Shown here: one piece after another, positions 1 to 55,752 of the stretch
Layout of the letters: each line of letters opens with the position of its first letter
Numbering within the stretch: the stretch's first letter is position 1
Source: Saccostrea cucullata
Lineage: Eukaryota
Reading direction: 5' to 3'
DNA: 64,000 nucleotides
Assembly (NCBI RefSeq): GCF_032062105.1
Contig: NW_026938566.1
Location: 124,001-188,000, forward strand
Program-made: the position numbers and the translations under genes
The notes under the pieces: model-generated
What the model saw: only the letters and a program-made list of their open reading frames with translations
What the model was told of the DNA's origin: nothing
Databases searched by the model: none

Positions 1-9242
<9,242 letters not shown>

Positions 9243-20161: not shown

Positions 20162-20742
20162 CATTAATAAGATATCAGAAAGTGGCATGGAATCCTCAAC
20201 TAAGAGAGGGGTTCAGTTGGCATTATTATACCTCTACTGATTTTTTCCTTTATAAAAGGGCAGTAAATGTGATTAATTTACTAGAAATCTCTGTGAATAG
20301 ACTAATCCCCGTGCGTTAGTTGAATGAGCTGGATTAGCTTCTGCTTCTGAAGCTAATTCTCCGGTTATCCGCTATCCTCTACTTTTGCATCGTTCTAATA
20401 TGTTAATGGACTTATCCCCATGCGTTAGTGCAGAAGCTAATTGCCCATCATTCGTAATCCTTTGTTTATTTTACTTTTGTATGGACATAATAAAACAGTT
20501 TAAAAGTATATCATTGAGGGAGTTAGCAAGATTTTAAAAAGGCATTATAACGCCTTTTGGAATGGAAAGGCGTAATAACGTCTTTTTTCGCGTTATTACG
20601 TCTTTTCAAAAGGCATTATAACGCCTTTTTAAAATTTTTTTCCCTCTAGATTGATCCTAATAGGCTTTCGTACTAATGTATGAATGAAGAAAAAAAATGG
20701 TTAGAAGTTGGAACCATCCACTTCACAAACACACATATACCC

Positions 20743-20745
<3 letters not shown>

Positions 20746-20809
<64 letters not shown>
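20746..20809. repeat. Poly(T) tract, 64 nt
   Basis: Uninterrupted T run, followed shortly by a C-run and (CA)n. Confidence 0.95.
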
Positions 20810-20811
<2 letters not shown>

Positions 20812-20973
20812 ATGTGAAGATTTTCAAGCAAGCCGAACTTTTTTCTCTGGTCTCTCTATCCCCCCCCCCCCCCCCACACACACACACATTTTAAGAAAGA
20901 ATACTTCGTCCCTGAAAGGCTTGGCCCATCACTGAGACCTTAGGTTAGAGGCCATTTGAAGATGACTTCATTA

Positions 20974-21483
20974 TGACGTCACAATAGTGGTTTGCTTGCG
21001 AAAGCCGTTGAAACAGACATAAAGAAACAGTAAGTAGATTTAATTCATATTGCAAATATTTTAAGAATGTTAGTACATTTGACAAATATTATTTGACGTA
21101 TGTTATGTGATATAGAAGGAAACGGACATTTATCTTGTGAATTATAACTAAATAGTTTAGAATTATTCCAATTTGCAATTTGATAACTGTAAAGCCGACG
21201 AACATTGACCCAAAGCTCACCAAAGATAAAAATCCACTATTTATAAGCCTAAAACCAACAGACCAGACGTGAAATTATAAGTAAGTAATTAAAGTTTTTA
21301 GTCAAGTAAAAGTAACATTAATTATTATCATACTTTATTGATTAAAGTGTTTTGTTTTTCCTTACGAGAACAGAGTAATTTCTAAAATATTCAGATACAT
21401 TGTTACGTCAAGCTCGATGTCTTTAGCGATGACCTATGACGTCATAATAGAGTTTTGTTTACACGAAAGTAGTGAAGATCAGA
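20974..21483 (+). promoter_or_regulatory. Two similar candidate promoter/first-exon modules with CRE palindromes
   Basis: TATGACGTCA(C/T)AATAG..GTTT..CGAAAG..TGAA..GTAAG occurs near 20972-21035 and 21436-21488. Each ends in a donor-like GTAAG upstream of the acceptor at 21537. Confidence 0.45.
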
Positions 21484-21548
21484 GTAAGCCTCTGCTGTGA
21501 ATTTTCAATCGTGTACAAGAATTCCTTTGTTCTCCAGGAACCGAAGCA

Positions 21549-24500
21549 ATGTTCGGCGATAAAAGAGAAGAACGGATAGAGAGAATTTTGACTGTGTTGG
21601 CTTGTCGATCAGCAGGTGTATCTGAAGACATGCTACCTATACCTCAAGTAAGACCAATGTTGAAAAATTTAAAAATATCTCCCCCCCCCTTTTTTCTAAA
21701 AAAAAAAAATTAAATCACCGAAAAATGAAATAAATGCCCAAAAATAATGAGTATAATCAAGGTTACTTTTTTTGAAGTTTTCTTTTAATCCACCGGAAAA
21801 TCGTAGAATAACTTGATATTTTTTTTCACTACATGTAAAGCATTTTACATTGAAAATACATCATTAATGTTATTTATAACACTTTCAAAAAAGTTATCGA
21901 TGTATTCTTTTTACAGAACTACGAGGAGATCCTGGATTTCGGTGAAGAGGCAGTCAAAGACCTAGTAAGTAGTTTACTTTTGAAATTAAAGTACAATAAT
22001 TCGTATTAGTTAAAAAAAATACCAGGACGTGATATTGTGACTTTGGCAATGAAAACCACTTTAAACTGATCCCTGCATTATAATTCCGTACGTGTTTTTT
22101 TTTCAATCAATAACAAATACATTCAAAATAGCAGGCCTATAGAACGCGGGGGGGGGGGGGGTGTCTTCCCACTCAGTTACTTTTGCTGACGTTTTAGAAT
22201 GTACATTTATGTTTTGATGCTTTTCCCTTTTAAGGTACTGTAAGATGGAACATTGACGAATTCATGCATAACTGACAAGTTTAGACTTACATTTTTTATG
22301 GTCTTTTATTTTTTTTTTTTTTTTGGGGGGGGGTTCCACTTCACTTTCCCTTTTAAAAGTTAAACCCCTTTCTGCTATTGCCACGGGCCTTTACTCCCTT
22401 AGATTTGTAAACATAACATATGCTGTTTGTTGTTATTTTTTAGAAATCCAAACAAGAAATATTGAAGTTTGATCGTAACTGGTGTGACTTAGTAGAAGAG
22501 GAGGAATTGCGACAGGTAAAATATGATTTGTTTTCTATATTATTTCTATATTTTGTTTTTAAATTATTATTGTAATATTTTACAGTTTTCAATACGTTTT
22601 CCTTTTTTTCCAATCTAGAAAAATGCGTTAACAATAATTTTCGAGAAAGAAAAAATTAGACCACAGACACAGATCTTGCAAAAAATGCTACAGGAATTGA
22701 AGGTACAGCTATTAGAAGTTATGATGCTATAACTTCAAAACTTTAGATTGAATTTTGATTATGTACAGAATTATTAGACTAGTGGTTTTTTTTTTTTTTT
22801 TAAAAACATGTTTAGTAGTTAATTTTTTATAAGTAAGACTTATTTGTTATAACTTATTTTTTTTTATTTGTTTTGAGATTTTTTGGTTAGTTCTAACTAA
22901 ATGCTTTGAGAACGATTAAATTTTTTCATGTTTTTTTCTGAATTTTAATCTGCATTCTCTCTGTGTTTTTAATGTGTTTTGACTTATTTCTTATTTGTTT
23001 TAACTTAGTTCTTATGACTAAACTTTGAATTCTTGTTATTTAAAATTTGTTATGACAAGTTTACTTCACAAAAAGTGGCGTGAAAGATGGAGACAACGTA
23101 TAGTTTCAGAAAAAAGTCCTTGAATTTATATATATTACTAACGAAAAGATAAAATAGTAGTCATGTTCTTGTCTTCAATCATTATGCAAACTGGAAGTTA
23201 CATATAAGAATTAAGTAATAGGAAATAAGTAGAAATCACAACTGTCGTTAAATTTTTGTCAATCAAAAACCACAGTTAAAATAGGACTAAACATTATTTT
23301 TTATTTAAAAAGTAAGCCAATCAACAGGTTTCAATAGGCTTCTTACATTTAGTTACCTCTAGCTACGAAACATTCACAACAAATAAGTCAAAACAAAAAA
23401 GTTATAACAAATAAGTCATAACAAGTAAGTCAATGTCCCTCCAGGGCTTCCGTACTGTTGTTTTAATGTGGTATGAAAACTAAGTAATTTGTATTTACCT
23501 CAAAAAAAAAAGAAGAAATCCATTACAATGTTCTAAGGATAAAGATATTTTATAGATACCTATAGTGTTCTTTTTGTTATTTAGAGAGAGGTGTCCAATA
23601 GAGTTCAGACAGCATTGAACAAAGAAAAACTAAAGGCAGGATGGACAGAAATACACCAAGAGATGATGGTATATTTTCTACAAGCAATATCTATTTACCT
23701 ATATAATGGTTCATTCTTTAATATATGGAAGGCTGAATTTTTGGCTTTTGGAAAACATTTGAAATACATGAAATATGTATTGTTTTGCAAACACTGATCA
23801 TATTTTTCAGGGAAAGATATCTGATAAAAGGAAAATGGATCAACAACTTGAACGAGAAAATACAAGACAGAGGTCAATTGGCTTAGAACTAAAGGTAAGT
23901 TATTGCCTAATTTTATATTTAGTCTATTTCATGTTTTGTAATTGTTAAAGAAATTAATGTAACAATGTTAAAATTAGAAAATAAGAGAGAGAGAGAGAGA
24001 GAAGGGGATACAGGAAATATGGGATTTGTTTACACAGAGTTGTTGATTTTTTTCGCACATATTTCTTGTAATATAAGTTTTTTTTTTTTTTGATTTTTAA
24101 AAAGAGTTGAATTTGATAAAATGAAATATTTTGGTACAGATAGTCTGGTCCTTGATGACTGTAAAAAGAGAAATCCAACAACTGAGAGTGGACTTAACAA
24201 GGAACATGTTGATGGGTCTGAAGGTATGTATTAAATCAAAGCTTTGTTTGAACTAAAGTCTGGATGTACTTTCCAACTATTAAATTTAATGAGATATACA
24301 AGAGAAAAAAAAACATTTACAGTAAAACTCGTTTAGTACAAACATACAGATATTGCGAATTCATTTTGTAGGTCTCAGTGACTTCATTATAACTGAGTTT
24401 TACTGTAAAAGGAGTATTAACTAAAATTTTTCAGAGATTTCTATTTTATTAATAAGATTGATATCATTTATCATTTTTTAAAAACTTAATTTGTGGTGTG

Positions 24501-27020
24501 GACTGCTTATTTTTAAATTTCCATATAACAATGTACAAATGATTAAAATATTTTTCTAGAAAGAGATGTCCATCAGACTTGAAAAAGCATTGACAAAAGA
24601 AGAACTAAAGGTGAAATGGACATCAATTCACCACGAGATGATGGTATATTTTCTTTTGTACAAGCATCATCTACTTAATTAATGGTTTATTCTTTGATGT
24701 CTTGAAGGCTGAATTCTTGGCTTTTAGAAAACACTGAAATACAGGAATGTACAATTTTGTTATGCAAATGCTGTCATATTTTTCAGGGAGTGGTATTAGA
24801 TAGAAGGAATATTCAAAAGCAAATGGATCTAGTAAGACAGAAAAAGAGGTCTATGCACTTGGAACTACTGGTGAGTTATTGCCTAATTAATATTTAAATA
24901 ATTTCTTGTTTTGTAATGTATTGAATAGATTATTGTTAAATGTAACTATGTTAAAATTAAAAAAGTTGTGTTTTTTTTTTAATATGAATTTGCTTAAACA
25001 TAATGTGTTTTTTAGGGGGGGGGAGGTAGTTCTTTGGGGGTTACTTAGAAGTTGTGTTTTTTTTTTTAATATGAATTTGCTTAAACATAATAGTGTTTTT
25101 TGTTACAGACAGTGTTGCGCATGATGGATTTAAGAAAAGAAATCGAAAAACTTAGAGAAGCAATCAGGAAGGTATGTATTTAATCACAGCTTTAAATGTA
25201 GAAATTCATGTTAATTGAACTAAAGTCTGGATGAACTTTCTGAATGTCAAATGTAATGAGATCACAAGAGGAAAAATAGGAGAGAAATTTTTTCAGTGAT
25301 TTTTTTTCTCATTATTATGATGATCAACTTTTTAAAATACTGGTAATTTCTTTGAGGTATGATCTGCTTAAAATAGGTTTATGCTCACAGCTGTTTTAAT
25401 GCAAGTGTTTTAATATCTGCATGCACATGTTCAATCAGTAATTTTTGTTTTTTTAGGAAGCTGAAGATGCTATAGTGGAAAAAAATAATGAAAAGAAATT
25501 AGACGTGATAAAATCTATTGAGAAAAATGTAAGTAATATTTTTAAAAAGTTTTATTCCAATTTTACACATCTCACTGCATTTACAAATAATATTCATGTC
25601 ATTTTGTGAAGAATTTTGATAACTTTTATTGTGTATTATGTTAAGTTAAGGCTGATTTTATGTGTTACAGGACATCTGCAATCAGGACTATCTGGATGTA
25701 CCAGAATCTGAGGAAACAGAGACTTTCATCCCAAGGAAATTGTTCCTTTTCAATGTAGAAACATTCAAAATGGATTCAAAGGTTAGAAATCTGGCTTTTT
25801 TCTTTAAAAATTCTTTTGATTATTTATATCAACTTTCAGTCTCAGGAAATCATATCATATATCATTGCAAATTTTTTTTTGATTAATTCAAAGAAATCAA
25901 AAGTTAAAACTCACACAAAATAGAAAACCCACACTTTTTTCTTGGTGATGAAAAAATAAATGGGGTTTAATCTATAAATTGTGAGTTCTCTATAAATGCA
26001 TTTGAAATAAAAATTGTTTTCACAAAATATACACATGTATTTTGTTTTCATTTCAGCATGATGATGAAGGTACACAGGAATGTAGCAGTAGTAATTCTAA
26101 GAGTGAAATGATTGAGTGCACTCCCACTGCAAATGAGGTACTTGAAATAGAAAATAATTACACCTGTATTTTGAATATTACAATTCATTCCCTTTATTAC
26201 TAATATTAATCATAGATAAGAGGTGTGTCTTCTTGACCCTGTAACAAGGTCATTCTGGTCAAAGTCAAGATGATCCTAACCCTAGCCCAGGAAAGGGTGA
26301 TCAAGTTCGTTTATTATAGAAATAAACTTAAAAGTAGAAAACAGATCACCAACACTTCGTGAGAATGCAGCAGTAAATTTATTTTGTTGACCGGTTTCGA
26401 CCTGTGATGGTCTTCATCAGAACAATTTATAGAAATGTAAAAATTTTTGTCTTAGCCATAACACTGAACTGGAGATATACTGAATTCAAGGTCTCTAACA
26501 TGGAATGTAAAATTATTGTCTTTTAACATTTTCTTCAAGAAGTAACTTTAGAGGATCATACTTGATCTGAGTTTATTGTGTCTATGATCATTGGATGCTA
26601 TTGCCTAAACATCATAAGGACAAGGCCACAGTGACATTTATGTGAAATGTGTAGGTTTCAGGTATTCTTGGATGAGCAATTGGGAGTTCATTTTTTGTTG
26701 TGACCTAGAGTTTTGACATGATGACAAGGTCAAGTGCTTCAGAGTTCAGCATTTGGGAGGAGATTTTTTAAAATGCTTTGACTTTGAATGGTCATAACTT
26801 TAAATACTTAACACAAAGATCACTCAGAACCAGATATTTTAAAGTGTCAACAATTTCCATATTTAAAGTGACTTTAGTTTCAAGAAAGTTGAATAAAATT
26901 ATTTTTTGAGAATTTTATTGATAACTTAGTTACCTTTATTTTCTTTTTCAGAGGTCCAATGAGCCAAAAAAGAAAACCCTGAAATCCAAGATCCAGAAAT
27001 TCTTCCGATTGAAGTCATAA
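21549..27020 (+). CDS. Uncharacterised ~372-aa modular, charged alpha-helical (coiled-coil-like) protein
   Basis: Fourteen coding exons, all AG/GT-bounded, phase 0 and stop-free: 21549-21647, 21917-21964, 22444-22515, 22619-22702, 23585-23668, 23811-23894, 24140-24223, 24560-24643, 24787-24870, 25109-25171, 25457-25528, 25671-25781, 26057-26137, 26952-27020 (TAA). AATAAA at ~27064. Begins MFGDKREERIERILTVLACRSAG, ends KKTLKSKIQKFFRLKS. Confidence 0.85.
24318..24407. mobile_element. Tiny pogo/Tigger-like MITE
   Basis: TACAGTAAAACTC / GAGTTTTACTGTA: TA flanks and CAGT..ACTG termini. Confidence 0.7.
26384..26425 (-). ncRNA. Minimal type I hammerhead ribozyme motif (Penelope-like element type)
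   Basis: Minus strand reads TTGTT-CTGATGA-A-GACC-atcaca-GGTC-GAAA-CCGG-TC-AACAA. All core nucleotides present, 5-bp stem I, 4-bp stem II, palindromic mini stem III, GUC cleavage triplet. Confidence 0.8.
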
Positions 27021-28133
27021 AGAGATATTGGGACATTAGCAAATGGATATCGTCTTTAACATCAATAAAATATTTAATGGAAAATGTGTCATACAAACTG
27101 TTTATCTCGCGTTTAAACCATCAATTAAATTAACGTATTAAATGAAATTTCTTGTTTTTCTTTTGATTTTTTTATGTCATAATTTCGGTTAGATGTAACA
27201 TATATCTTCAAAAATATTTAAGAAAAAAATAAAGACTGCAAGAAAAGGCCCAAGGGCCTCAACAGTTGCCTGAGTATAACAACAATTAAGAGGAGCCACA
27301 GTATGAAAGTATGAAATTTATAAACTGACAGATGAAGCTTTGATGCTCAAAAGCAAAAGAAATAGGATGATCAGGACCAATGAAATATCTAGACAAGTAT
27401 TAAAGTCATGTCAATTTAACTTCCTGTTCATTGGACATTTGATGAAAAATGTACTAGTGGGGAAGAGATTCAGTAATAATATTCATACTTTTGTATGTAT
27501 CAAATGAATGCAAAATAATTTTCAAATGCCTATTAAGACATCATCATTCCTTGAATTTATTTATATCTTCTGCATCGTAAAATTATTCAATGAATAATAT
27601 GAATTCATAATAATTTTTAAATGACTATAACGCATTTTGTATTCTACATATTTAATATATATTTTTCAAAATTATAATTTTTTTTATATGAAATGCTGAC
27701 CATAAATGCATGGATTTTTCATTTTAGAGAGAAAAACCAAAAGTATTTAATCAGTGATATCTTTAATTAAATAAAAGTATAATTTAAAACATTTCTTAAA
27801 TAAACAGTTGCTAGCTTTGTGTCATCTTTCTGTTTTTAATTGTAAGATATCTTTATAAATCGATTAAAGAGAACAAAAATTGAATTAATGTGCGCATTCA
27901 ATATGTGATTGCACACAAAAGAGAATTAAACTAAACAGATATCTTTGAATATACATGTATTGAACTATTCGGGCTTTGAACATGGGAAATAGTAAATTGG
28001 AATAGAAATAAATGTTAGAGTTCACAGTAAAATGGACTCAACAGGTGATGGAATAGACTGTTTAAAAATATTAAATAATATCAATAATTACAAGTTTTCA
28101 CGTTTTCTCACGGCCATAACTAAATAGTCTAAA

Positions 28134-31100
28134 TCACTGGTTAACTAATAAACCAAAGAAAACTATTGTCACTGTTGGAGAAATAATCATATAAAAGATG
28201 AAAAAGAGACGATCCAAAACTCGCGCCAGAGTTCGCCATTCCTGTTGCCGCTCCTCGCCGTCCATGACGTCATGGTCGGTTTCTGTCACGTGACTCCCGT
28301 CATATACAGACAGGGATTCTATATTTTCCACTTTAACGTCGTCTTTATTTTTATCCTGAAACAGAAAAGTACTTCAAGTCAAGAACTTTGAAACATACAA
28401 AAATTAATCATGAGACATACTAGATCCATCTTTGGATACCCGATGATATACTAAATAGACCGCTTAATTACAATAAAATATCCTCTTTCCTATTCCAAGA
28501 AAACAAATATTTTTAAAATCATATAATATTGAAATTAGAAGTGCATGCAAGCACATCCTGTTTCTTACTGATGCTGGCTTTTTGTCCACAATGCCAACTT
28601 TTGTTGTTGGACAGAGCACAAATCTGAGTTTTCCAAGAAACAACCTTCTGACCCATGAGGGTACCCGATTTGTCGATTCCTCTCGGAAATGTAAATATAA
28701 TACCCAGACCGCAATTGTGCAAGAGAGACACACGATAACCATACACACCGAAAAGTAGACACCTGTAAAACATAACATTTAAAGTATGTTTTTTATCTTA
28801 AAGAAAGATCAATGATTAAAATACTAGAAGTACGAACAGGTTTTATAAATCCAATGATTTTTTTTTTTTTAATTTGACCCACCTATAATTGGAAAAGTTT
28901 CCGCGGATGCTGGTAACTTATCAGAAACAAGAAGCAGAAACACAGAAAGTGACAATAAAACAGTCACTTCAAGTGAAACTTTTTCTCCAGAGTCAGCTGG
29001 AAGTATGAACCCCAAGGCGGCAAGAGCAAGCACAAGTGTGCAAGGAAATATAATTGTCAACACGTAGAATTTCGGTTTCCGCTTCATTGTCAACGTAAAC
29101 GTAATATCAGGGTAAGGTTCCGGACAACAGCCGTAGTAGGCCACGTTACGCTGGCTCAAGATGCTGACGACTGACCACTCATTGCTTTCGACAAACGAAG
29201 ATAAATCTCCTGAAAATTGAAAATAACAATGCAAGGTTTTTGGATGTTATGAATGCATTTACATGTACTGGGTCTTTAAGCTTAAAATTTGGGTTAATAA
29301 ATAAATCATGAATGTAGTGTTTCAAATGTTTTTTTAGTTTGGTTTTTATTTCATGGTTTTAACAAATTTATTACACCATTTTGCCAGTCTCGATATGCAC
29401 CTACTTCGCCATAATTTTGAAACTTGAAAAAAATTAATTTTTAAAAACAGCAATTCGTCCTTCTTATTAAAAAATACACGGTATATTAAACTCTTAAAAG
29501 AGAAGAGTGTTGGACCTGTAGATCTTTTTGCAAGAAGGTCAAGTTCCTGGCCGTGGTGAGTCCAGGACCCCAGCTTGATGGTACATTTCTGTGTGTCATA
29601 AGGGAAGTAGGTGACGTCAACAGAACACGTGATCTCCACCACTGTAGGAAAGTTGAAATACGCAGATCCGTCAGAATAAACCGAAATTCTGTAAAAGGCC
29701 CGGCCTGGCATGTCCTCACCCTTAGTAACACTGATTAGAGAAAATCAGTATTAATGCAAAGAAATAAACGATAATCATATTCTATAAACAAATGCTATAT
29801 AAAAAGTCTTAAAAAACTAAAGAACATATGAAGTTTAAGGGAGTACAACTGACGATTTTGAATCCACCGCACAATATATAAAAGTTCTATATGGATGTGT
29901 TTTAGAGTTTTAATTATTCTGAAATCAGGACCTGTCAGTTCCATACTTCATTAAAGTTTTATAAATATCCCTACCTCTCAAACAAAGTGATATCAGGAGT
30001 CCAGATTTTACTTGAGGGGACAGTTAAGGAACTAAAGCCTCCGTATGATGAAGGAGTCCAGGTAAGAGAACAGTCTTTCCAACTCTGAGGAAAAAATGAT
30101 CACTTTACTTTAGTATGATCATACTACGCCTAAAAGAATGTTAAAGTTTTGTATATGACATACAGGGATAAAGAATGGCAACCATGCTTAAATTCACTGA
30201 AACAGTACAAATCGGGAACAGAACAAACATGGACCTAAAAAACATCAGACATGGGATTAGGTGTCAGGGAGGAGATATAAACTCTAAAATCCTTGTATTG
30301 GCCAATGATCTGAGCAAAAATTCTTGCTTATTAATAAAATTATCTAAACAAAATGCTTGCTTATAAATCAAATTATCGGAATAAAAAGTTAGTTTTGGCC
30401 TGCTTAAAAGGGATTTTAAATAAAGATTTTTCTCTACTCAAAATGTTCCCCTATTGTGACCTACCACTACCTATCACGGGACCATAATTTAATCAAAATA
30501 CTAAATTTGCACTTTCAGAGAATGCTTGTACAAGAAGGTGCTGCTCATTAACCCAATGATGTTTCGTAATGCGCAGTTGAATTGTTTCATTAATTTTCGA
30601 TATGAATTCGTAAATGGAAATTAAAGTTAAAGCAATATGAGCTGCATTTTTGAAAATTTTATTTTGCTGTTAAAATGTGTTGTTATGATATTTTTGTATG
30701 TAACTTAAACCTTTATGATCAATTAAACTAAAATAAAGCAGAAAAAAAACTTCTACATACAATCCAATATACAGTTTTATATAAGAAATCTTTATTGTAC
30801 AGGACGACAATAATGCAATTTTGATTCAGTCGAAGCTCATAAATAGTTCTTGCATCGCAAACACTGTAAAAAAATAACTAGTTAAAGTCACGAAGAAAAC
30901 TAGTAAATTTACTGTCCATACAATCACTACCTTAAAAGTAGTTTTACCAGATTATGGTATATTTACTAGATAAGATTAGTAAATTTAGAATTGATATAAG
31001 TAACTTTCACTAGGTATCTAAGTATCTATACGACCCCCGCTCCACAACTCACTATCTTAACCAGTAAAATGAAAGTTTACTAATCACGACCAACGCTTTA

Positions 31101-37901: not shown

Positions 37902-40900
37902 CTACTGATTTACCAAAATACCAAAGAAAACTATTGTTACTATGAGAGAAATAACCAGGTAAAAGATAAAAAACAGACGATCCAAAACGCGCGCTAAATT
38001 TCGCCATTCCTCTAGTATCTGTTCTGAGTTGGTACTTTTATTAGTTTTTGTCTCTTGACAACTACTTTCTATTGAAAAAGAATGCACACTTTCTACCTCA
38101 ACATCACATTTGTTTACACCCTGAAATAATAAAAATAAGAGATATGTCTTTAAAGAAATACATATAAAATGAACATTTATTTTAGAAAGCATGCATTTGT
38201 AACATTAAAAAGTTACAGACCTTGCTTATTACAGTTTCTGGCTTCTCCGAAGCGACTTTGGTCGTGTCACACAGCACAAATCGTAATTTTCTAAGAAAAA
38301 TATTCTTGACTGATGAAGGCAATGGGCATGTCGATTCTCCACGGAAATGTAAATACAAGACACAGACGGCAAATGTACATGAGAGACAGACGATAACCAT
38401 ACACACAGAAAAGTATATCCCTGTAAAATAAAAGTTATCGTAATATCATTATTGACCCAATAACATTATGTAATTAGAAAAGTAACACTAAAATAGTAAA
38501 ATTGAAATTTTAGGTATCAGTAAAGACCCTTCTTCGCACATGCACACACAAGCAATATCCCTCACCAATGATTGGAAAAGTTTCTGCGGATGCTGGTAAC
38601 TTATCAGAAACAAGCAGAAGAAACACAGATAGTGACAGTAAAACAGTCACTTCAAGTGAAACTTTTTCTCCAGAGTCAGCTGGAATTATAAATCCAAGGG
38701 CGGCTAAAGCAACCACAAGAGTACATGGGAATATGATTGTCAGCACATAGAACCTGGGCTTTCTCTTCATGTGAAGGTAAAACGTCACATCCGGGAAAGG
38801 TTCTGGGCAGCATCCATAGTATACCACGTGACGTTCGCTCCGGAAGCTGACAACCTCCCACTCATTGCTCTTAACAAAAGAAGACAAATCTCCTACCAAA
38901 AAAAAATTTAAATACAGTATTGTCATGTTCTTAATTTTTCATCTATCAAATTCAAAATTTAGAACATGACACTAGCCATTTGAGCAGATTTGAAAAATTG
39001 TCATAATTGTACCATCATTACAACATGCAAATATTTATTTGCATATAATATATCACTGTAAATTTCTTTTTGTTTATGGTTGCAAAAGTATAACTGGATG
39101 AAAGAGTTTCACTTAAAGTTAAATATTGATCTTTAATTAAAAAGCGTCCTTTTTAATAATAATAATAATTAAAAAAATTAAAATCAATGACAATGACAAA
39201 CCGGTAGATCTTCTGGCCACTAGATCAACCTCTTGCCCATTATAAGTCCAGGACCCTAGTGTTATGGTGCATTTTTGTGTGTCGTACGGGAAATATGTGA
39301 CATCAACTGAACACGACATCTCCACAACTGTCGGAAAGTTGAAGTAGGCTGATCCGTCGGAATACACCGTGATCCGGTAAAATCCACGACCTGGCAAATT
39401 CTCACCCTCATGCGCACTGAGAAACAAATATAACTTAGGTGAAATGGAACATAAATTTTTAGAAAAAAATCTGTTTCCTTGCACCTATTAATCCGAATTA
39501 TGCAGCCGAGTGTTATTCAGTGTACAACAATGCTCTCATTGTCCCATTATTAATTTACAAAATGAATTTAAAGCCTAGATAATTCTTACACTATAAAACA
39601 TTAAAATGCACCTCTCAAAAAGAGTGATATCCGGTGTCCAAAGTTTGCTCATGGACACCGAAAAGGAAGCGAGTCCCCCGTACGTGGCAGACGTCCAGGC
39701 CAGATAGCAGTCTTTCCAGCTCTTGGTAAAATAAAAGTCTTAGAATGATTGACAAGAACTTAGCATACAGATATTTAATTGCATTGTCTCTCTTAAGTTG
39801 GGAAAGCTTTCTTTTACAAAAAAGATTGTCAACATTCCAGTAGTAAAATTTTACAGTACATGTATTGATGCTGAAACAAAATTCGAGTTGTGTTTAAACT
39901 GTTTCCCCAATATCTTCTTTATTCAACAATCTGAGTGATTTTGTGCCAAATCAATTGCAACTTTTTTTTTTCCTTTCAAAGTTACGATCAATGCAAAAAA
40001 TTACACCTCTGAAACTTGTGACCTTGTCCTTAATAAACCCCTACTTTATAGCTACATAATCTGTACACATCCTCTACTTAGAAAGGGTCCTTTTATGAAA
40101 GATGAGCTTCCAATGTTATGGCCAGAAAAAGTTAATTTGAATACAATTTTATAAAAATTGACCAGTTGCTCTATGGAAGTAGGCAGTAGCTAGTAATATG
40201 AAGGAATAAGCAGACCTTCAAATGGTGGACCCACTCTTACCAATAAATAAATAAATCAAACATAAAAATAAATCAATTAACAAAGAGTCAAAGGAATAAA
40301 AAGAGAAAAAATGAATGTACTAGTAATCTACATTTTTCTTTTATCATTGATAAAATTATTTTATTGAATACAACATGTATACCTGACGTATCCACATCTT
40401 TAACTTCAACGTTTGTTCTCTTTCATTCTAAAAAAGTTTAAATACATAATTAAGTAAAAAGAACTTGCAAGAACTAATGATTTTCATAAATTGCAAGCAT
40501 TTGTTAATTAGATTTAAAAAAAATAGCTGTAAACTGTCAATTTAATTGACATGTCGTTATTTTTTTGGTCGCTTTGAAGTGATATACGAATATTGTTACA
40601 TTTAATCGGAATATCAAACAATGGTTATGTAAACTTCCTCTGCGATAGTAATTTCTTGTACAATTAAGAACCTTTGAGTATGTGTGGATATTTTGCTCTA
40701 TTTAGAAATCAATGTAGAACCTTGAGAATAAACAGCTGCGATTGACATCGGTTAATATTTATTTTCTGTAGGGAGCTGTGGTGAAATAATACCCATGTTC
40801 CTTCGTGCATTCTTTTTTCAAGATTTCTCATACAGAATTATCTTAAGTGCTTTAATATCTATTTTAATTTCTTCGCTGCCTTTTGAATTGGTACTGGTAT

Positions 40901-47474: not shown

Positions 47475-48205
47475 AGCGAGAAAGTGTGGAGATTGAGGGG
47501 TAAGAAGTCTTGGAAGAAAGAGAGTGGGATAGTAAGGGGTGAGAAGTCATGGGAAAAAAGAGTGGGAGAATAAGGGATGAGAAGTCGTGGGAGAAAGAGA
47601 GTGGGAGAGTGAGGGATGAGAAGTCGTGGGAGAAAAGAGAGTGTGGAAAGTGAGGGGTGAAAAGTCGTTGGAGAAAGAGAGTGGGAGAGTGAGGGATGAG
47701 AAGTCGTGGGAGAAAAGAGAGTATGGAGAGTGAGGGGTGAGAAGTCATGGGAGAAAGAGAGTGAGGGATGAGGAGTCCAGGGAGAAAAGAGAGTGGGGGA
47801 GTGAGGGGTGAGAAGTCGTGGGAGAGAGAGAGTGGGAGAGTGAGGGGTGAGAAGTCGTATACGAGAATGAGAATGCATGAGGAAGAAAAAGGGAGGGGGA
47901 TAGAGAAAGAGAGAGAGAGTCGAGGGAGAAAAGGAGAGAGGAGAGGGAGGGGAGAAAGAGAGAAGGAGAGGGAGAAAGAGAATAGGGAGGGGAGAAAGAG
48001 TAAGATGGATAGTTTGAATGGAGGGAGAAAGAGAATGAGGAGTGAGAGAGTAGGGAACAGAAAGGTTTGAAGTATTAGGGATAGTGCAGGAGGGGGGAAT
48101 GGGAAGAATGAAAGAGTAGGAAAGAAAGTGGGGAAGACTGGAGAGAGAATTGGTGAGAGTAGGGAGAGTGATGGGGAGTGGTGGTGGAGAGATGGGATGT
48201 GAGAG
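47475..48205. repeat. Purine-rich ~39-41-bp minisatellite (about 10 units) plus GA-rich low-complexity tract
   Basis: Unit close to GAGAGTGGGAGAGTGAGGGATGAGAAGTCGTGGGAGAAA from 47480 to 47860, then a purine-rich (mostly G/A) tract to about 48205. Confidence 0.9.
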
Positions 48206-48412
48206 AGTCGGCGTGTGGGGTCGAGAAAAAGCAACGAAATCGACAAATACAAAAACGGACGGGGCTTGGTTGGTTGAAAGCTTTAACAAAGAGAAACCAA
48301 GATGGAAATTAAGCTACTTTCTGAATGACTCAAAGTTTCATTTTTTTACTCAATCTACTTTGCTTTATTTATTTCTTTCTTTTTAAAGGAGCTGGTTTGC
48401 ATTGTGTGTGAC

Positions 48413-51400
48413 ATGGGATGCCCAAAGAGAGTCATTGTTGGTCTTTTAACTTTTCTTGGATTCCTCATTTTCTTTGGCTTCAGGACAGTGTTTACCATGG
48501 TTATGGTCTATGTTATCAAGGAAAATGACAACACCGGAGTGTCCTTGTTTGACAAGGTGAGAATAATAGCAAATATTTTCTTGATGTACTATAAAATATC
48601 ACTGTTCATGGGTGATCAATGGTCGCGGATTTCATAAGTTGCCTTAACCCTCAAATTCATATACCCATGAACGTTAACATTAATCTTTTATATGCATATT
48701 TTACAAGCTATCATCGAAGTAATTTCCTCGTGAACGTTCCCCGCTAACATTAGGGGAGTTTCAGGGATAAACCCATTTTGGTCCATATTTTTTGGTGCTG
48801 TTAACCACGGATATTTTATAATTTTCCCAATCTCCTCAATATAGGGGATTTTTAACGTTACTCTCTTCAGTTAAGACATTTATCAAACCTGATAAACCCA
48901 TACCAGAACTAAGTCGGAATCTTTTAGATTCCACCAGAAGTTTCAAAGAAGTACAAAGCCATCCTTGTAGATATAATGAAAGTAGATGTTTAAACGTAGT
49001 CGTATACTTTTGAAGAATGGATACTTTTAATTTATAGAGAATAGAAAAAAGAATTTCCATCATTTTTTTTGTTTCCTTATCTATCACTTTTTTTTAAATT
49101 CAAGTGCACCTTGAATGGTACCTCTAATGATCTACAATTAAACTGGAGTGTATCGCTGTCCCAGTACCTCAGCACGGCCTACTTTCTGGGATACTTAATA
49201 ACGCAACTACCAGGAGGATATTTAGCTGTCCGGTTTTCCCCAACTAAGTAATGTGATTTTTATACAATTAAAAAATAAATTTCAAATTAACAAATTTTAT
49301 TAGAGGACAGTATTTCCTCCAAATAAAATATGGTCTGACTTTTTAAAAATCTAAAAATCCTAATATTTTTTTCTAGAGTGTTTGGAGGAGCCATTCTTAT
49401 AAGTTCATCCTGTTTCTTGATAATGGCATTTTTCTTGAAGTACAGTCCAATCGTTGCTTATGTTGCTAGAATTATCCAAGGACTTGCAGAGGTATATGTA
49501 ACAGATGTTTTATATTTTTTGATTCACAACGGAAATTTTCATTGTACTTTCTTGGATATACGAGCATAACTCATTTCAAAGGGCACGTGTCAACCCGCCA
49601 TGGGTGCTGTAATGTCATCCTGGGCACCGAAATCGGAACGAGCGAGAATGGTGGGACTGTCGTATTCAGGTATTCTTTTAATTCACGTAGGGAAAAGTCT
49701 CTTCAAAGTTTCATTTCAAAAACATTTGATGTATACTGGTATATATGAAAATTTTTATGTGATGATATACAGAGCTACCCTCTAAAGTTTAATTAACACT
49801 TTAAAACATTTAATTTAAACACACTTTATCGAAAGCAAACGTGAAGAATTCGGAAATATAGGTTTTGATTTGTTTCTAAAATTTTACAAATAAATCTATC
49901 AAAACATTTTAGATACTAAAAGAATTGCACTATTTTACATCATTTTATTTCTAGAATTGTAAGAAAAGAATGGCTTATGATAACCAGTATACATGTATAT
50001 AATTGAAGGTATTTACCTGAGCGCATCACTGGGATCTGCTATAGCGGGAAGTACCACATGTTACGTCAGCTGGAACGCTGCACTCTTCATCTATGGTATA
50101 AATCTGAATCTGATGGTGGATTTGCAGACAATTTCATTGATATTTCAAACAAAATAAGAGTTCATAATTTCAAAAAATAAAATACCAAATGATAGACATC
50201 TTTCAAAAAAAAAATACAGACATGCAAAATACAACAGGCATAAAATATTTGAAAAAAAGTATAAATACATGTATGTCCTGTGAATGATAAAACGTCTGAA
50301 TAATAGATTTTAATATTCAGTCATTAACTAAAACATTAAAGTACTTTTTATTATGCAGGAGGTATGGGCATTCTTTGGTCGTTTGTTTGGTTTTGCATGG
50401 TATATGACAGTCCACTGATGCATCCATCATTGAGTGAAAAGGAGAGGGACATATTTGAGAAAGAAGGTTCCAACATCTTAAAGTCTTCCTCAGATCTTGT
50501 AAGAATTCATATTATGATGAACATTGATTTTAACAAAAAATGCGAAATAAAATCTGTTTTTAAAAACCAATGTACTTTATATTTATAAAGGCTAAAAGTG
50601 TTCCTTGGCGGCGGTTATTGACGTCACTTCCTGTCTGGGCATTGTACCTGGCCAATTTCACCAGATCCTGGGTTTTCGCTATGATCATTTTTGAAATTCC
50701 TCAATATTTTACGGATGCATTTGCTCTTAATGTGTCAACGGTAAAATTAAAATTACATAGTAGTACTGAAAGCCTTAATAATGCACATCTGTAAGGTAAA
50801 TGGTTCATAAACAAAATTAAAGGTACCTTTGTGTTAAAAAAAATATGCATTTTTTTCTTCTCCCAGATTGGATTCTTGACTTGTTTCCCGCCAATTCTAA
50901 TGACTGTGTCTGTAGTATTTGGAGGAATCTTCGTAGACAAACTAGTGAAAACTGAAAAAGTTTCAGTAACTGCTGGGCGTAAATTATCTCTTTGTATAGG
51001 TATTTGATTTAATTATCTGAGGTGTCTAAAACTTGATTCTTTTCATCCACACAACAAATAAATAATATATTGATTATATTTCTATATATTTTCAAGGTTT
51101 TGGATCAGAGTCCTTGTGCATTTTAGCTCTTGGTTTTGCTAGAGATTACAGCACAGCCGCTGTTCTTATAGTAGTTGCAGAGGGACTGGCAGGACTGTCT
51201 ATTGCAAGTATGTTCATTTATTAACTCATTTTACATTTAACCCATTCAAACATTTTACTATTTAGTAATATTCTTATTATAGGTTTTAAAGTCAATCCCG
51301 TTGACTTAGCCCCTCAATATGCCAGTGTTTTGACGGGAATAGTGAGGTCTGGGGTTCTAGGGGCTGCCATCGGTACTGCAATTGCTGGGGCTCTCAGAGA

Positions 51401-54747: not shown

Positions 54748-55752
54748 TTTATTGTCCCCCGCTTTCGCGAAAGCGAGGGGACATTAAATCTCATTCGTCT
54801 GTCCGTCTGTCTGTCTGTCTGTCCGTCACAAAAACTTTAACCTTGCCCATAACTTTTGATTTAGTGGAGCTATGATTTTCATATTTCATATGTTTATTCC
54901 TTGTGATAAGACCTTTCTTTGGGTACCACCAAATTTGACCTTTTGACCTTGACCTTGAAGTTTGACCAACTTTTACTAAAAAATTTCAAACTTTTACTTT
55001 GGCCATAACTTTTGAATGGTAGGTACTAGGACTTTTATATTTCACAAATTTATTTTTTGGGACAAGACCTTTCATTGGATACCAACAACTTTGACCTTTT
55101 GACCTTGACCTTGGAAATTTACGTACTTATGAAAAAACTATAACCGTGACCATAATTTTTGAACGGTAAGGGCTGTGGCTTTTATACTTCACATATGTTA
55201 TTCCTGTAAGAAGACCTTTCATTGGATACCAAGAACTTTAACCTTTTGACCTTGACCTTGGAGTTTTAACTACTTTTTAAAAATTATAACCTTGGTCACA
55301 ACTTTTGAACGGTAGATACAAGGACTTTTATATTTCACATATGTATTCTTTGTGGCAAGACCTAACTTTGACCTTTTGACCTTGACCTTGGAGATTTACG
55401 TACTTCTGAAAAAACTTTAACCTTGACCATAACTTTTAAACGGTAAGGGCTAGGGCTTTCGTACTTCACGTATGTAATTTTTGTGAGAAGACCTTTCATT
55501 GAATACCAAGAACTTTGACCCTTTGACCTTGACCTTGGAGTTTTAACTACTTTTTAAAAACTTTAACCTTGGTCACAACTTTTAAACAGTAGAAACTAGG
55601 ACTTTCATATTTTAAATATATGTATTCTTTGTGGCAAGACCTTTCATGGGATACCAATAACTTTGACCTTTTGACCTTGACCCTAAAAAATAATATCTCG
55701 CCCACAAAGACACCGAAAGCGGGGGACCACAATTCTTTGAATTTGCTTGTTT
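54748..55752. mobile_element. Complete HINE/pearl-like element with six ~147-bp internal repeats
   Basis: 14-bp IR GTCCCCCGCTTTCG (54754-54767) / CGAAAGCGGGGGAC (55714-55727). (GTCT/GTCC)n microsatellite. TTT(G/A)ACC..TGACCTTGACC anchors at 54934, 55090, 55237, 55367, 55514 and 55662. Confidence 0.88.

Follow-up and report, generated by a model that had tools for sequence, protein, structure and literature searches.

A 14-exon gene lies at positions 21549-27020 on the plus strand of a 64,000-nucleotide stretch of the oyster Saccostrea cucullata (NCBI RefSeq assembly GCF_032062105.1, contig NW_026938566.1, positions 124,001 to 188,000 of the forward strand; hereafter the window, numbered from its first letter). 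The gene is real, annotated and uncharacterised, and its new element is an exon-tuned oyster family that bears a stretch matching the SLIP1-binding motif (SBM). We tentatively propose that the product is an SBM-headed adaptor for MIF4G translation factors, with a rod whose length is set by its exons and a basic tail held at a membrane.

The exon chain was rebuilt from splice signals after reading positions 20500-28000 of the window. Its 13 GT-AG introns are 103-882 nt long and in phase 0 throughout, and the spliced frame encodes 372 amino acids and has a single terminal stop, TAA at 27018-27020; stops are present in 26 of the 28 alternative exon frames. An identity search with exon 5 plus the read-through into its intron returned 1 protein among 2 candidates, and the model proved letter-identical to RefSeq XP_062589014.1, isoform X1 of the uncharacterized S. 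cucullata locus LOC134250673. The original prediction, made from the letters of the window, had described a hidden orphan gene of 14 phase-0 exons and 372 residues in which six exons are each 84 nt; its exon structure was exact, exons 4-9 being the six of 84 nt, and the gene is not hidden because the model is identical to an annotated RefSeq protein. Leaving exons 5 and 6 out of the model yields exactly isoform X2 (XP_062589016.1, 316 amino acids), no other exon subset with up to three exons removed reproduces it, and X1 and X2 were the only two protein isoforms found for the locus. RefSeq isoforms of this kind are usually based on transcriptome sequencing (RNA-seq). About half of animal introns are in phase 0, and at that rate the chance of 13 of 13 phase-0 introns is approximately 1e-4; when introns 4-10 are pooled as one ancestral event, leaving 7 events, the chance becomes approximately 0.008, and the pattern is still non-random.

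The match to the SBM lies in the N-terminal module (N-module), encoded by exons 2 and 3, and the comparison was prompted by what we took to be a likeness of this module to the N-terminus of eIF3g. In the SLIP1-SLBP crystal structure, the SBM contacts are N93, W94, G95, D96, V98, E99 and E102, the SLBP helix 94-105 starts at the SBM Trp, and the SLIP1 dimer has two sites for the SBM; the DBP5 substitution W6A abolishes binding (PMC3763545). Residues 11-17 of eIF3g bind MIF4GD (bioRxiv 10.1101/2024.09.11.612445), PAIP1 and CTIF also bind the SBM, in metazoans from sponges onward, and viruses exploit the same groove (bioRxiv 10.64898/2026.07.31.742013). SLIP1 has been found confidently only in metazoans (bioRxiv 10.64898/2026.10.14.759114), and the only cellular SBM proteins named in the sources cited here are SLBP, DDX19 and eIF3g. 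We infer that oysters possess the MIF4GD, CTIF and PAIP1 partners.

In the window protein, the corresponding residues are N61, W62, C63, D64, V66, E67 and E70, so that six of the seven contacts are identical and the seventh is a small residue. The count across the family described below took the upstream core plus W as its anchor and covered 47 distinct copies, which came from 39 of the 42 proteins. The contact positions were strongly kept (S or N at -1 in 45 copies, D or E at +2 in 41, V at +4 in 46, E at +5 in 45 and E at +8 in 46), while the non-contact positions were looser, +3 being variable and +6 being E in only 28 of the 47. The combination of W, +4, +5 and +8 was satisfied in 43 of the 47 copies versus none of 60 other family tryptophans, and composition alone would yield it with a chance of 0.0014 per W. 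Residues W44, V48, E49 and E52 were already invariant or nearly so in an alignment that predated the SBM comparison. When exon 3 alone was searched against 177,635 PDB sequences, chain C of 4JHK, the SLIP1-SLBP complex, ranked first (8 of 13 residues identical, E 0.59). AlphaFold predicted a helix at 44-55 that begins at the W in the minimal family member P0016 (pLDDT approximately 88), and in the model of the window protein the match falls inside a long predicted helix. The SLBP histone stem-loop RNA-binding domain (PF15247) gave no Pfam match in the window protein or in the 38 relatives scanned.

Several points weigh against the adaptor proposal. Chance PDB matches of control exons were of similar strength (E 0.45 and 1.2, versus 0.59), and two whole paralogs used as PDB queries did not retrieve 4JHK. 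The counts are also shaped by how they were made: the homolog profile contained the motif and thus favours matches that keep it, copies that had lost the W were left out (one of them in P0021), and the family copies share one origin and are hence non-independent. At +1, 17 of the 47 copies have a Val or Ile, which is bulkier than the Gly or Ala that has been described. The module that holds the match is 32 residues long, with the match as its final third; its upstream residues L-23, D-22, F-21, G-20, K-10, I-7, L-6 and F-4 are equally conserved and held at a fixed spacing, and the conserved unit may instead be some other, larger binding element with an SBM-like helix at its end. The membrane role was derived from composition alone, and each rod exon end keeps a conserved patch that a passive spacer would not need.

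The family was assembled from a first profile search over 1.84 billion representatives, which gave 29 proteins at E<=0.001, and a second that gave 23, with 7,992 candidates scored (lengths 81-875 amino acids). The resulting set contains 42 proteins, 11 of them unlabelled and 31 with a species label, all oysters: 25 from S. cucullata, some of which may be haplotigs, 5 from S. echinata and 1 from Crassostrea gigas (LOC105337229 X4). Its defining features are the N-module, the exon-12 motif and the basic amphipathic tail; the original prediction did not recognise these conserved ends, the SBM match in exon 3 foremost among them. Of the 42 proteins, 25 have both the N-module and the exon-12 motif, with 29-393 amino acids between them, so that constant ends enclose a variable middle; in 15 proteins the N-module is itself repeated two to four times at spacings of 41-76 amino acids. 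The paralogs reorder and multiply modules of about 28 amino acids, the order being D-A-B-C-A-B-C' in the window gene and D-C-A-A-A-C in P0005, whereas P0004 has a partial A module followed by three full A modules. Over 16 proteins the commonest module spacings were 28 (35 times), 25 (9 times), 29 (8 times) and 32 (8 times). P0007 and P0037 differ by one 28-amino-acid block, and four isoforms are annotated for a more distant S. cucullata paralog, with length differences of 28, 53 and 53 amino acids, its X3 and X4 representing skips between similar tandem units.

Searches beyond the family found no relatives of known identity. Neither the window protein nor any of the 38 relatives scanned had a Pfam family above cut-off, a PDB sequence search with the whole protein and two family profiles gave nothing at E<=0.001, and Foldseek against the PDB gave no match at the same threshold. 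A wide fold search of the P0016 model with VIA-align reached a best Z of only 2.3, and the ESM Atlas entries for P0001 and P0009 held no usable feature match and merely generic long-helix structure rows. The names assigned automatically by RefSeq (golgin, trichohyalin, ELKS, tropomyosin) are inconsistent between paralogs, and no family-specific profile or structure match was found for any of these identities. With the C. gigas relative as query, a scan of metagenomes gave 595 pattern matches and no confirmed relatives, the 42 family queries had no match in the window beyond the gene's own locus, and no publication on the family or on LOC105337229 was found in open-access text, a search that did not cover supplements, where expression tables may exist. 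These results support a lineage-restricted helical-repeat family with oysters as its species-labelled members. They agree with the earlier view of a lineage-specific helical-repeat protein of no recognised family, and the paralogs that it had suggested looking for do vary in module number; with so many oyster paralogs, the term orphan does not apply. The accompanying idea that any internal exon can be skipped or duplicated in frame survives in part: rod-exon skipping is seen in annotated isoforms and duplication and reordering among paralogs, but skipping was confined to rod exons and the gene itself has two isoforms.

Some members depart from this plan. Six proteins (P0018, P0021, P0030, P0032, P0036 and P0042) form a rodless subfamily with another middle motif that starts with S-P-R, is repeated in some of them and is followed by a basic helix, which suggests that the middle region was rebuilt independently in different subfamilies. 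The S. echinata members P0009, P0030 and P0042 lie on contigs that are each 29,015,514 long, and the LOC numbers of two of them are adjacent, a hint of a tandem cluster. In P0014 (residues approximately 215-250) and P0026, helices have hydrophobic residues paired every four positions, an arrangement that we take to resemble AKAP or DPY30-binding helices.

The middle of the window protein is a predicted helical rod. AlphaFold, run with an alignment of 5 sequences, predicted a single helix at residues 49-280 with pLDDT mostly between 70 and 91 (pTM 0.24), and a homodimer prediction of residues 34-290, in which the alignment was not used, gave a score of 0.00 and no verdict. The rod is 35% hydrophobic with almost no Pro or Gly. 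In the family, 94 end-anchored words were collected, of which the 52 with a spacing of 25, 28 or 29 were kept and 42 dropped. These modules have a polar middle and a conserved end patch: position 23 is hydrophobic in all 52, position 26 is E in 49 and position 27 is L or M in all 52. A matrix of this patch was built from 44 words taken from 8 more distant proteins. Applied to the 359 windows of the window protein, it gave the four highest ranks to the junctions that follow exons 4, 8, 5 and 9, and ranks seven and eight to the ones that follow exons 7 and 6, while the other seven junctions scored -21 to -28; the test is partly circular, as the pattern used to pick the words also fits the window gene. 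The new junction in X2, from exon 4 to exon 7, scored 17.4. Most of the information in the patch precedes the junction, and the rod exons are therefore joinable in any order with the patch intact. WH2, IQ and AKAP readings of the patch were considered informally and dropped on spacing. By arithmetic, each 28-amino-acid exon would add approximately 4.2 nm if helical and the X2 skip would remove 8.4 nm; a 53-amino-acid double module would span 7.95 nm, which is near the tubulin dimer repeat, a coincidence for which we found no supporting link.

The six 84-nt exons are not independent, as exons 5-7 and 8-10 were duplicated together with their introns. Positions 23582-23981 and 24557-24964 are 75% identical over 419 nt (E 1e-70), and homology extends to the intron pairs 5/8, 6/9 and 7/10, with a local z of 24, 13 and 13, respectively, the remaining intron pairs scoring 3 or less; the two exon triplets therefore arose by one tandem duplication. 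The element that resembles a miniature inverted-repeat transposable element (MITE) in intron 4 sits just upstream of exons 5 and 6, which are the exons skipped in X2.

How the rod should be understood is where the alternatives diverge. It could be an ordinary fibrous coiled coil of the golgin or trichohyalin kind, with the cassette exons reflecting rod growth and the SBM likeness a chance feature of an unrelated head motif, and this we regard as unlikely. A predicted helix of 232 residues, its composition, and module lengths of 25, 28 and 29, which would fit heptads with stutters, are all in keeping with it. The periodicity speaks to both sides: hydrophobic power in the window protein was 8.7 at a period of 4.0 and 6.8 at a secondary peak of 3.48, against a shuffled 95th percentile of 7.1, and period 4.0 exceeded 3.5 in 35 of the 52 family modules, 3.5 being favoured in the other 17. 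Among 11 rods, the top period was 3.89-4.07 in 8 and 3.53 in 1, with a weaker peak at 3.5 present, and in X2 the power fell below its own shuffled bound. No dominant 3.5-residue period of a canonical heptad coiled coil was thus found along the rod, and the description of each 84-nt exon as four heptads gives way to a period nearer 4.0 in both the window protein and the family modules. In addition, the hydrophobic residues gather at module ends, the rods are net basic (+10 to +29, n=11), and many rodless members retain both end motifs. The rod could alternatively be the working part, as a single helix with tandem docking sites for EF-hand proteins such as centrin or calmodulin, in the manner of Sfi1, the count of sites being set by splicing. 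The sequence W-x-x-I-x-x-x-M, found in exons 5 and 8, conforms to the centrin 1-4-8 triad (PMC8622359), and 18 such sites occur in 10 of the 16 rod proteins, with a further, different match in P0025; the basic rod and the single conserved patch per module are also as expected. The 1-4-8 pattern is, however, generic to amphipathic helices, W occupies the triad column in just 11 of the 52 modules, the Sfi1 repeat is reversed in orientation with a different consensus (PMC8622359), and the existence of rodless members also argues against a docking rod, which we consider quite improbable.

The remaining alternatives concern the variation itself. Module number might vary without regulated use, through tandem exon duplication under relaxed constraint and with skipping as splicing noise among nearly identical splice sites or a prediction artefact; this account is compatible with the SBM reading and strikes us as distinctly unlikely. 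It would explain why dN (0.38) is close to dS (0.36) between the duplicated exons, a comparison with just 33 synonymous sites, as well as the two protein isoforms of the window gene and the skips between similar units in the paralog, but not the strong retention of positions 23, 26 and 27 of the exon-end patch or the occurrence of whole-module isoform differences in two separate S. cucullata genes, the C. gigas record being itself an isoform X4. The most improbable of the alternatives is a hypervariable gamete-recognition or immune protein similar to oyster bindin, with repeat number set by splicing and recombination. The host group and the devices of diversification are the same as in bindin (PMC5712786), and exon pairs 5/8 and 6/9 together show 50 differences in 168 nt, against 15 in 133 aligned nt for intron pair 5/8 (Fisher p 1e-4; 0.007 when gap events are counted). 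This contrast, which suggests fast exon change, depends on intron 5/8 alone because identity falls to 76% in introns 6/9 and to 72% in introns 7/10. Nor was any lectin or other Pfam domain found above cut-off, inspection by eye, made without a signal-peptide predictor, shows no long run of hydrophobic residues at the N-terminus, and the end motifs look cytoplasmic.

Returning to the SBM-headed adaptor, the N-terminal head would dock a MIF4G-domain factor, whether SLIP1/MIF4GD, CTIF or PAIP1, while the predicted long helical rod, built from modules of about 28 residues with one phase-0 exon each, would separate the head from a basic amphipathic tail that likely attaches to membrane. Gain or skipping of an exon would alter the reach of this tether and leave both ends untouched, and the role could be the placing or sequestering of mRNA-translation complexes. 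Members with two to four SBM copies could bind bivalently and occupy both sites of the SLIP1 dimer, because that dimer has two SBM sites. In its widest form, which we put forward as doubtful, a large and fast-evolving oyster family of SBM adaptors, with one to four SBM heads and a membrane tail, would capture the SLIP1/CTIF/PAIP1 branch of initiation, and a helical ruler of interchangeable exon cassettes, adjusted by splicing and exon shuffling, would set the distance of translation complexes from the membrane in steps of approximately 4 nm. If true, this would add lineage-specific SBM proteins beyond SLBP, DDX19 and eIF3g, in analogy to the capture of PAIP1 by SARS-CoV-2 NSP3, and a multigene, lineage-restricted family that keeps the SBM, at times in tandem, while exon duplication and skipping rework the region between its ends would amount to a new level of control over translation in a group used in aquaculture. 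The gene is also a clean natural case in which phase-0 exon cassettes vary both among paralogs and among isoforms. Should the SBM reading fail, what is left is a tidy but ordinary instance of an uncharacterised oyster family whose repeats have multiplied through symmetric exons.

The other two family-defining elements lie downstream of the rod. A canonical eIF4E-binding motif is Y-x4-L-hydrophobic, and although the spacing of the exon-12 motif fits it in 24 of 24 distinct copies, this reading was rejected, as 23 of the 24 have Phe rather than Tyr. A PAM2 reading, judged against the PAM2 consensus, was likewise set aside, as the Leu and Ala upstream of F-x-P were present in 0 of 42 proteins. 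The core of the motif fits what we take to be the cyclin-docking pattern R-x-L-F. In the 14 proteins caught by a tail pattern, the C-terminal tail has a net charge of +6 to +8 and a hydrophobic moment of 0.55-0.97; the window protein was missed by this pattern, and its own windows at 359-360 score 0.67-0.68 versus a median of 0.30. Two S. echinata members have Cys clusters ahead of the tail.

Features of the gene and its immediate surroundings, in window coordinates.
Feature	Position	Strand	Description
Probable non-coding upstream exon	20960..21029	+	start approximate; consensus donor at 21030
CAG acceptor	21535-21537	+	11 nt before ATG
Exon 1	21549..21647	+	99 nt, residues 1-33; helix common only to the S. 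cucullata rod-bearing subfamily
Exon 2	21917..21964	+	48 nt; first half of N-module; LDFG at 21932-21943
Exon 3	22444..22515	+	72 nt; remaining half of N-module, including the SBM match (22477-22506)
Exon 4	22619..22702	+	84 nt; first rod module
MITE-like insertion bounded by inverted repeat	22834..23420	.	intron 4; 40-nt arms, 85% complementary
Exon 5	23585..23668	+	84 nt; rod module A; missing from X2
Tandem duplication of three-exon block with introns	23585..25456	+	period approximately 975 bp; from local alignment and intron homology
Exon 6	23811..23894	+	84 nt; rod module B; missing from X2
Exon 7	24140..24223	+	84 nt; rod module C
Exon 8	24560..24643	+	84 nt; copy of exon 5 (65/84 nt, 16/28 amino acids identical)
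Exon 9	24787..24870	+	84 nt; copy of exon 6 (53/84 nt, 9/28 amino acids identical)
Exon 10	25109..25171	+	63 nt; copy of exon 7, 21 nt shorter in frame
Exon 11	25457..25528	+	72 nt; predicted helix ends here
Exon 12	25671..25781	+	111 nt; acidic stretch and motif F-x-P-R-x-L-F-x-F-x-[IV]-x-x-F-K at 25725-25769
Exon 13	26057..26137	+	81 nt; acidic/Ser linker, low confidence in model
Exon 14	26952..27020	+	69 nt including TAA; basic amphipathic C-terminal helix, conserved in family
AATAAA	27064..27069	+	44 nt past stop codon

The rest of the window holds other genes and repeats. Upstream, on the strand opposite to the studied gene, are exons of the ATP synthase alpha/beta family (526-894 and 7599-7910, minus strand; Pfam PF00006 and PF02874). 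Two tandem genes for Cys-loop ligand-gated ion channels (28464-29744 and 37902-39484, minus strand; PF02931 and PF02932) both carry the vicinal-cysteine motif of nicotinic receptor alpha subunits, and the first of them converges on the 3' end of the studied gene. An open reading frame (ORF) with a hydrophobic stretch at 48329-48637 (plus strand) could, judged by eye, be the first exon of an MFS/SLC17-type transporter and had no Pfam match. Two distinct tandem arrays, each with a period of approximately 147 bp, lie at 3430-4573 and 54988-55682 (7.9 and 4.8 copies), and a purine-rich 39-bp minisatellite with a GA-rich tract at 47479-48000 gives rise to long spurious minus-strand ORFs. A 35-nt inverted repeat with a 41-nt spacer occurs at 20528-20638, approximately 900 nt upstream of the ATG. 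The palindrome TGACGTCA is found upstream of the gene at 20974 and 21437, with similar flanking sequence at both sites; a reading of these two as a gene-specific cAMP response element (CRE) signal was rejected because the window contains 8 occurrences versus 0.43 expected, and the palindrome is probably part of a common oyster repeat.

In the PEVK region of titin, each module is reportedly encoded by one short symmetric exon. PEVK and the oyster rod both consist of modules of similar size, 26-28 residues in PEVK, whose number is set by alternative splicing, but PEVK is proline-rich and disordered, whereas the oyster modules contain 0.5% proline and are predicted to be helical, and there is no homology between them (PMC7691732). 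Oyster sperm bindin is likewise an oyster gene in which repeat number varies by duplication and alternative splicing; its repeats are F-lectin domains in an acrosomal protein, and Pfam finds no lectin domain here (PMC5712786). Sfi1-centrin filaments share with the oyster rod a long helix with similarly spaced tandem sites, some with W at a 1-4-8 triad, but differ from it in the opposite orientation of the motif, the absence of W from most oyster modules and the lack of any sequence similarity found (PMC8622359). By inspection of the module table, the Sfi1 consensus AX7LLX3F/LX2W was not present in each repeat, and a minority of modules showed a forward W-x-x-I-x-x-x-M/L. The LDFG of exon 2 fits the hydrophobic-x-F-G motifs that bind G3BP, as do 46 of the 48 copies with enough upstream sequence, which is weak evidence from a four-residue pattern; LDFG stands at a fixed 23 residues from the W, which suggests that it is part of one module and not a free motif (PMC8605023). 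With SLBP, DDX19/DBP5 and eIF3g, the oyster protein shares a W-centred acidic stretch, predicted to be helical, with the same residues at contact positions, near the N-terminus and probably outside a folded domain (PMC3763545; bioRxiv 10.64898/2026.07.31.742013; bioRxiv 10.1101/2024.09.11.612445). It belongs neither to these families nor to that of titin. Unlike SLBP, DDX19/DBP5 and eIF3g, it has no RNA-binding, helicase or RRM domain by Pfam, and its motif, whose binding is putative, ends a longer conserved module that is present in up to 4 copies and joined to a rod and a basic tail.

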